IMG/VR virus record: IMGVR_UViG_3300028783_000001
Location: 104,738-168,737 of that record
Reading direction: 5' to 3' (one strand)
DNA length: 64,000 bases
DNA from: a virus
Shown: piece by piece, positions 31,308-31,967 of the stretch
How the letters are laid out: every line of letters begins with the position of its first letter
Position numbering within the stretch: the first letter of the stretch is position 1
Position numbers and translations under genes: made by a program
Notes under the pieces: generated by a model
What the model was told of the DNA's origin: nothing
The model's database searches: none
What the model saw: the letters and a program-made list of their open reading frames with translations, nothing else

Positions 31308-31967
31308 ATGTTTGGATTTGACAAGGCCCTCCAGTTACTGAAGGCTGGAAACCTCGTTCATAGGTCAGGGAAGTGGGACGACGACGAGTTTATCTACCTA
31401 GTCAGAGGTGGGAGCTTCATCGTTAACCGCGCACCGCTGCTGGGGATCTTCCCCAGTGGCACTATCTGCACGTACAAGAGTCGTATAGATCGCAACGACG
31501 GTAACGGAACCCTCAGTGGTGCTGGGCTAACCGACGACGACCTACTCGCAGAGGACTGGGAGATGACCGACGTCATGGACCGCGCGTTTATTGACCACGT
31601 CACGAAGACAGACCACGCACCCTTACCAATAGATACCGATACCGACGGGCCATTGACTTGGCCACTCAATCTGATAAGCGATGAGCAATGCGTGGTCATT
31701 ACCGACTTTAGCTTGGGCGGAATTACCAGCGCGCAAGACGACTTTGCTGTCAAGTATGGTTCTATCGCAAGCTACATTGCAATTGGCTACAGTGATATAG
31801 CTGAGTGGGCCGAGAGCATTCCCGACTACGGCGATCACCTGGTAACAGGGACATCAGCATCTATCATAGAGCACGGGTACCTCGGTCGGCTGCAAGGACG
31901 GGTAGCATGTACTGATGCCTACTTGCGGCCACAGCTCAGGTTCATCGAACGCAGCTTCGTCTGCTAA
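31308..31967 (+). CDS. Tad2/DUF2829-like protein fused to an MCP-like C-terminal domain
   Basis: FDKALQLLKAG..VHRSGKW..FIYLV..DLLAEDW is the DUF2829/Tad2 signature; AGGAG RBS. Confidence 0.75.
   Translation: MFGFDKALQLLKAGNLVHRSGKWDDDEFIYLVRGGSFIVNRAPLLGIFPSGTICTYKSRIDRNDGNGTLSGAGLTDDDLLAEDWEMTDVMDRAFIDHVTKTDHAPLPIDTDTDGPLTWPLNLISDEQCVVITDFSLGGITSAQDDFAVKYGSIASYIAIGYSDIAEWAESIPDYGDHLVTGTSASIIEHGYLGRLQGRVACTDAYLRPQLRFIERSFVC

Follow-up and report, generated by a model that had tools for sequence, protein, structure and literature searches.

Does a small gene of a jumbo phage join an anti-defence domain of the Tad2 family to a diverged piece of the phage's own major capsid protein (MCP) and, if so, what may such a protein do? 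The question is raised by a 64,000-nucleotide stretch of DNA, here called the window, belonging to a 168.7-kb record of a jumbo phage of peat metagenomes, which carries a gene for a 219-residue protein of this make-up. An earlier note, based on the letters of the window and their open reading frames, had set the gene at 31308-31967, in a non-structural plus-strand island, and had described its product as the fusion of a Tad2-like domain to a diverged piece of the MCP encoded by the same phage. The gene and its parts, in window coordinates, are:

31308-31967, plus strand: fusion gene, 219 aa, stop codon included (ORF list; AGGAG at 31298-31302, ATG at 31308)
31317-31565, plus strand: Tad2-like (DUF2829) sponge domain, residues 4-86 (PF11195, 36.2 bits)
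31569-31964, plus strand: module derived from the MCP, residues 88-219, corresponding in diverged form to MCP residues ~183-306 (spine helix and most of the A-domain)
31851-31949, plus strand: best-conserved core, residues 182-214, with the pattern G[YF][LM]GRLxG-4x-TDA[YF]xxPxxRF common to the beta-hairpin and the following loop of the MCP

Both the coordinates and the location hold. The ATG at 31308, with an AGGAG sequence before it, lies 8 nt past the stop codon of the 310-aa gene upstream; the ATG of the gene coming next lies 11 nt past the fusion stop. Intergenic gaps of 8 and 11 nt indicate that the fusion belongs, as one cistron, to a plus-strand operon of closely spaced genes (28664-32613). 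The first gene of the operon encodes a RuvC-like resolvase (phrog_18317), and the operon is flanked on one side by the minus-strand head module, on the other by a minus-strand block which includes a type IB topoisomerase-like gene. A possible start farther upstream, the ATG at 31254, was rejected, since it overlaps the preceding gene and is devoid of a ribosome-binding site, whereas 31308 has one. Identical DNA spanning the fusion region, with zero variation, is present on contigs of three other metagenome samples, one of the contigs being 224.5 kb long. Scanning the island for promoters and terminators revealed nothing above the shuffled expectation, and none of the island proteins matched PADLOC models.

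The DUF2829/Tad2 signature assigned by the earlier note to the N-terminal ~90 aa is borne out. Residues 4-86 match the Pfam Tad2-like profile PF11195 with 36.2 bits, the gathering score being 25 (E 8.8e-9), over profile positions 3-72 of 73. The only PDB sequences retrieved by phmmer are Tad2 entries (8v3e and 9eib, ModTad2): fusion residues 3-86 align end to end to residues 5-86 of 88, the match being weak (E 0.036). All of the 15 matches obtained by searching phage records with the fusion protein by tblastn are confined to residues 2-87. At the level of sequence, these comparisons identify the N-terminal ~87 aa as a domain of the Tad2 family. As in SPO1 Tad2, HgmTad2 and ModTad2 (8v3e, 9eib), the domain fits the whole length of the family profile, and has a Trp in the first loop and a T/D-rich stretch before the C-terminal D-W helix. 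Yet, characterised members are single-domain tetramers of ~89 aa (10.1101/2023.05.01.538930), whereas the fusion has in addition a C-terminal module of 130 aa, of capsid origin.

Tad2 is an 89-aa homotetramer which sequesters gcADPR (10.1101/2023.05.01.538930). Some members bind also cyclic dinucleotides, in a second pocket (10.1101/2023.11.15.567273), and the ModTad2 clade binds the His-ADPR of type II Thoeris (10.1101/2024.01.03.573942). The ligand-pocket residues of HgmTad2 are W21/N22 and S90/T92/D93 (10.1101/2023.11.15.567273). W23 and T75/D77/D78 are conserved between the window protein and a second fusion protein described below. In the alignment to ModTad2, W23 is paired to the W of WNG, D77/D78 are not identities, and T75 is unaligned. 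The Asn is replaced by Asp or Pro in the fusion proteins. The Tad2 half most likely functions as a sponge for an immune nucleotide.

The C-terminal half has to be compared with the following features of the minus strand:

24284-25378, minus strand: MCP gene, of the family from which the C-terminal module derives (major head protein phrog_2522, E 2.5e-65)
24461-24832, minus strand: MCP residues 183-306, the segment homologous to the fusion module (alignment ranges and AF2 secondary structure)

The MCP is 33-39% identical to the MCPs of PaBG, phiRSL1, Lu11 and BcepSauron. A profile of the MCP family (alignment A1, 115 members) retrieves from the PDB the entry 6wkk, titled Gp27 major capsid protein (E 7.6e-31). 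The AF2 model of the window MCP has a pLDDT of 87.3, and HK97 capsids and encapsulins are its top Foldseek matches. Helices are found in the model at residues 183-210, 226-237, 250-258, 260-264 and 272-278, strands at residues 218-220, 243-248, 280-284 and 287-291, with a beta-hairpin at 280-291. By the order of HK97 elements in this model, helix 183-210 is read as the spine helix, and the elements at 218-291 as the A-domain.

How much of a capsid protein can be recognized in the window protein alone? BLASTP recovers the by-eye alignment of the earlier note, pairing fusion residues 161-213 to MCP residues 253-302 with 28% identity; E is 0.004 in the pairwise comparison and 0.21 against all the ORFs of the genome, and the pairwise match, taken by itself, is thus marginal. 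Shuffle tests of the pairwise score of the C-terminal half gave z ~4.5. The MCP-family HMM assigns to the same half 12.1 bits (E, equal to P for one target, ~4e-6), the core being aligned by hmmsearch to HMM positions 273-302. This score was reached by 0 of 20,000 shuffles, the highest of which had at most 7.8 bits, and the fusion is the only match found by the HMM among the 392 ORFs of the genome (E 0.004), besides the MCP itself. When the C-terminal half alone is compared with family A1 by hhalign, P is 1.3e-4, and core residues 182-214 lie on positions 271-303. In a relaxed hhalign alignment residues 88-219 are collinear with MCP residues 183-310, the stretch 88-130 being placed with low confidence, and a series of similar patches (DVMDRAF/DIMDDTY, GGITS/GGMTP, YSDIA/WTDIA) is followed by the strong hairpin motif. 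The half matches by BLASTP 89 of the 115 MCPs (best E 5.8e-5). The best BLAST matches of the C-terminal halves of the two fusions are scattered across the MCP family, and no single donor lineage stands out.

Outside this family the module seems isolated. An exhaustive phmmer search of 1.84 billion representatives with residues 88-219 retrieved only the protein itself, and, when 50,697 phage records were searched by tblastn with the C-terminal half, only chance-level matches (E at least 3) were obtained. Word-index searches for homologues of the whole protein and of the N-terminal domain returned the protein itself or nothing. MCP-like sequences were found in no frame either upstream of the module or past the fusion stop, and the module has no nucleotide similarity to the MCP gene. 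The AF2 model of the fusion, computed from the single sequence without an alignment, has a pLDDT of 29. The ESM Atlas model (0.49) is of low confidence as well, and its structure neighbours, all with TM < 0.4, are meaningless. Prediction of a complex of the MCP and the C-terminal module scored 0.00 with the fold of the module uncertain, and weighs neither way on binding.

Walking along contigs which carry close MCP relatives led to a second fusion protein, P0122, 212 aa long. It is encoded in L009, a relative of the window phage with an 86% identical MCP, directly after the homologue of the p228 gene; apart from the inserted 310-aa gene, this is also the place of the fusion in the window. P0122 scores 40.9 bits against the Pfam Tad2-like profile, and is 29% identical to the window fusion over the full length (E 1e-17). 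Its C-terminal half alone is aligned by hhalign to the MCP family over 103 columns (probability 86.5%, E 4.6e-6), a KDDR sequence facing the EDR which is invariant in the spine helix. In BLASTP searches the same half matches 88 of the 115 MCPs (best E 1.9e-7), its positions 4-128 facing MCP residues 183-305. A profile made of the two C-terminal sequences reaches a hhalign probability of 92.6% (E 4.6e-7, 69 columns). Reciprocally, the two-sequence HMM retrieves, among all ORFs of at least 50 aa in the genome and in the fetched loci, nine MCPs only (E 3e-7 to 7e-6), the next match having an E of 0.019. Clusters of HK97-type capsids and encapsulins (GP7, SrpI-like, P2, SU10 and crAss capsid) are the nearest to the C-terminal half of P0122 in language-model features (~0.90), which is a lead, not a proof. 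Two-sequence alignments found no further related locus in viral and metagenome contigs. A degenerate DNA pattern of the core motif retrieved only two ordinary MCPs and spurious ORFs from JGI metagenomes, one of the same two MCPs from viral contigs, nothing from genome contigs. The fusion family found includes two members.

The existence of P0122 and the profile matches support the conclusion that residues ~88-219 represent MCP residues ~183-306 in a copied and diverged form. Profile statistics establish that the C-terminal ~130 aa descend from an HK97-fold MCP of the phage's own family, and, as far as the alignments tell, the module begins right after the Tad2 domain, and takes in the spine helix together with the larger part of the axial (A) domain. 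The resemblance to the MCP, seen by eye in the earlier note, therefore reflects real homology, but the length there proposed, ~90 aa, was too short, the homologous stretch being ~125-130 aa long. Of the checks which the note had suggested, the alignment to the MCP proved marginal in pairwise form and significant in HMM and profile form, and the search for the same fusion elsewhere yielded one, P0122. The architecture, with a Tad2-like domain preceding a diverged fragment of the phage's own MCP, is now backed by independent statistics and by a second member. The function read into it by the note, a signal sponge combined with a capsid decoy or capsid-targeting module, is a hypothesis. The fusion is a genuine accessory protein of the phage, made of two domains, and is conserved.

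What has been kept, and what has been lost, of the capsid protein? The module is devoid of the N-arm, the E-loop, the P-domain and the last ~60 residues of the MCP and, because the first three elements are missing, cannot be a capsid subunit. Within residues 183-308 the MCPs have 27 columns conserved at 80% or more; 6 are kept in the window protein, 7 in that of L009. G279, G282, G286 and D292 are kept in both fusions, D200 and G222 in the window protein, V197 and G212 in the L009 protein. The DPV motif, E274, T278 and R295 have been replaced. The two fusions share a signature of their own, having [YW]GDH[LF]V and GRL where the MCP has FDPV and GTL. Compared with the HK97-fold MCPs of the PaBG/phiRSL1/Lu11 group (phrog_2522; 6wkk), the module keeps the hairpin glycines, the TD residues and the Pro of the following loop, but is truncated, ~25% identical, and poor in conserved columns. 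Being incomplete, and having lost most of the conserved residues, the fusion protein classifies as a derivative of the MCP, not as an MCP. With 6-7 of 27 columns kept, the module is no faithful copy of the MCP surface, and a simple role as a decoy or in co-assembly is weakened, not excluded. The ordinary MCPs encoded at L012:1989-3095 and L014:6206-7312, both on the minus strand, carry the sequence GYIGRLxGM...TDAYRxP, which is nearer to the core motif of the fusions than the corresponding sequence of the window MCP. The motif of the fusions thus falls within the range of the family, and the donor lineage may differ from the present MCP allele.

Among the genes of the island the fusion evolves the fastest. 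Identity between the window phage and L009 is 86% for the MCP, 60% for p228, 50% for RuvC, 41% for p152, and 29% for the fusion. Divergence so fast is typical of arms-race genes. The Tad2 halves of the two fusions are 37% identical and the C-terminal halves 31%, against the 86% of the MCPs, and the module evolves far faster than the capsid protein. The two halves having diverged to similar degrees, and the frame being open, decay of the C-terminal half is no faster than that of the sponge half, an argument for the capsid-derived half being under constraint while changing rapidly, as in an arms race. Relatives with MCPs 71-75% identical to that of the window phage (L001, L005, L007/L008 and L020) have other small genes, or nothing, at the fusion site. 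Accordingly, the fusion is limited to one small clade, its site being an accessory island that varies.

MCPs have recently emerged as a prominent target of bacterial immune sensing, being recognized by Thoeris ThsB, Avs7/8/10, Dsr1, CapRel and Lit. The A-domain makes contacts around the axis of the capsomer. Thoeris ThsB1/ThsB2 are activated by the MCP, and the staphylococcal Thoeris sensors contact its E-loop and P-loop (PMC12578639). Avs7, Avs8 and Avs10 envelop the penton/hexon-forming face of the MCP A-domain, and the Avs7 sensor is shared by Dsr1 (PMC13581612). Since the module copies the A-domain, to which the face gripped by Avs7/8/10 belongs, interference with MCP recognition is the function we favour: the MCP-derived half would counteract MCP-directed immunity, acting as a decoy or as a shield, a reading to which we assign somewhat less than an even chance. 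The Tad2 half would form the usual tetramer, and sequester a TIR- or cGAS-type signal, be it gcADPR, His-ADPR or a cyclic dinucleotide. As a decoy, the A-domain-shaped surface would occupy MCP-sensing receptors as an incomplete mimic, unable to activate them. As a shield, the module would dock on the capsomer-forming face of free, unassembled MCP, thus hiding that face. In either case a single polypeptide would weaken the trigger as well as the signal. A narrower proposal, which we regard as unlikely, is that a mimic of the trigger is coupled to the sponge: by binding receptors of the MCP face (ThsB, Avs7/8/10-like), or by capping the MCP, the module would dampen activation and bring the Tad2 tetramer to the source of the alarm nucleotide.

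The main argument against interference is the poor retention of MCP-conserved residues. Moreover, the E-loop and the P-loop contacted by staphylococcal Thoeris sensors are missing from the module, and a mimic of the trigger could activate the sensor instead of blocking it. Models of the fusion are of low confidence (AF2 pLDDT 29; ESM Atlas 0.49), only two members are at hand, and the gene is missing in the relatives with 71-75% identical MCPs.

The loss of conserved residues can be accommodated by assuming that the fold alone was retained to serve the sponge, by promoting oligomerisation or stability, or by adding or altering a ligand pocket, with no link to the capsid left. We consider this possible, if rather less than probable. 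The private [YW]GDH[LF]V and GRL signature, which has replaced FDPV/GTL, points to a new function, and Tad2 proteins of related jumbo phages have other extensions, unrelated to the MCP (PaBG gp163, phrog_1048). On the other hand, the few residues kept are those most conserved in MCPs, namely the hairpin glycines, TD and P. Furthermore, A-domains naturally contact A-domains, and the fold is thus most simply put to use in an interaction related to the capsid. The part of the MCP homologous to the module makes contacts within the capsomer, and this is in favour of a different hypothesis, according to which the module docks the sponge on procapsids or capsomers, the protein being either carried by the virion or concentrated at the sites where capsid proteins gather. 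A precedent is provided by DarA and Hdf, the head-tied anti-restriction proteins of phage P1 (PMC12810830). Docking is nonetheless quite unlikely. A sponge works stoichiometrically, and few delivered copies would achieve little; the N-arm, the E-loop and the P-domain, missing in the module, are the elements which lock subunits into the lattice; the gene resides outside the structural module, in an operon shared with a RuvC-like resolvase.

That the C-terminal half may have no function at all is, to our judgement, a slimmer chance still. In such a scenario a Tad2 gene would read through into the decaying remnant of a duplicated MCP gene. Zero nucleotide similarity to the MCP gene, the failure of the searches made to find homologues beyond one small clade, and the low-confidence structure predictions are in line with decay. 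The frame of 130 codons is however open in two lineages which are only 31% identical in the C-terminal half, this half has diverged no faster than the Tad2 half while preserving the shared motif, and MCP-like sequences do not continue past the stop in any frame. Both docking and decay are less likely than interference, by decoy or shield, and than reuse of the fold. Last, the C-terminal half could be an unrelated orphan domain which resembles the MCP by chance, or by convergence on a short glycine-rich motif, as the marginal genome-wide match of the window protein (E 0.21) and the length of the confident core, only ~30 residues, might suggest. Chance resemblance has now become improbable to a high degree, because an independent homologue aligns over 103-125 residues, the two-sequence profile matches the family profile with an E of 4.6e-7, the reciprocal search yields MCPs only, none of the 20,000 shuffles attains the observed score, and the language-model neighbours are capsid families.

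Literature searches found no published fusion of DUF2829 to a capsid protein, no decoy made of a capsid fragment among the results listed, and no phage countermeasure exploiting a mimic of the capsid protein. A related architecture is that of PaBG gp163 (phrog_1048; L018:2060-2710), a protein of 216 aa which similarly joins Tad2 to a second module of ~130 aa, and is encoded in an accessory region. In gp163, however, the Tad2-like domain is located at the C-terminus (47.4 bits), and the extra module is an N-terminal extension of 128 aa, of no assigned family and without similarity to the MCP, whereas the window fusion has its extra module at the C-terminus, and this module comes from the capsid protein. 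At least two architectures of Tad2 fusions thus occur in this group of jumbo phages. Tad1, Tad2 and Acb2 are sponges for multiple signals, and like them one small protein could counter several immune inputs (10.1101/2023.11.15.567273). These sponges have several pockets in one fold; in contrast, the window fusion adds an unrelated domain, the target of which is probably a protein and not a nucleotide.

Should a trigger mimic be indeed coupled to a sponge, this would be the first anti-defence protein for which a virus has reused part of its own capsid protein. More generally, were sensors or the MCP to be the target of the capsid-derived half, the fusion would represent a new class of anti-defence modules, and structural genes would be a raw material for counter-defence. 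If the module is only a scaffold, it would still be a case of exaptation of the HK97 A-domain outside capsids and encapsulins, and would widen the range of Tad2 architectures. By this architecture the sponging of signals may be tied to that branch of bacterial immunity which senses capsids. The fusion is a small, concrete test case, the halves being separable and the cognate MCP known.

Additional observations concern the surroundings of the fusion. The gene directly upstream (30367-31299, plus strand) encodes an orphan protein of 310 aa with no Pfam, PHROG or PADLOC match. It is missing in L009, where the fusion comes straight after the p228 homologue; the gene has the look of an insert in a hot spot of accessory genes, and may be a further counter-defence candidate. 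ARAGORN places a tRNA-Gly(TCC) gene immediately after the plus-strand island (32672-32747, minus strand), and a tRNA-Pro(CGG) gene at 45684-45760, also on the minus strand. The topoisomerase-like gene (34043-36070, minus strand) encodes 675 aa, with the catalytic core of a eukaryotic-type topoisomerase I (PF01028, 43.5 bits) and with a C-terminal tail rich in Pro, Lys and Ala, and the protein is conserved in relatives. Directly downstream of the MCP gene, an ORF of 351 aa (23156-24211, minus strand) matches DUF7487 (44.7 bits) and, near threshold, a TnsA-like endonuclease N-terminal domain. Homologues of this ORF adjoin the MCP gene in L007 and L010, and are absent in L008, L005 and L020; L007 and L008 encode the same MCP protein, yet only the former has the homologue. 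This pattern of presence and absence suggests a mobile endonuclease gene. Beyond the island, a long gene is broken by inserted ORFs in L001 (positions 1-4003) and L020 (positions 1-44). The interrupted gene probably encodes a ribonucleotide reductase, and its L020 product carries the Pfam marks Intein_splicing and LAGLIDADG.
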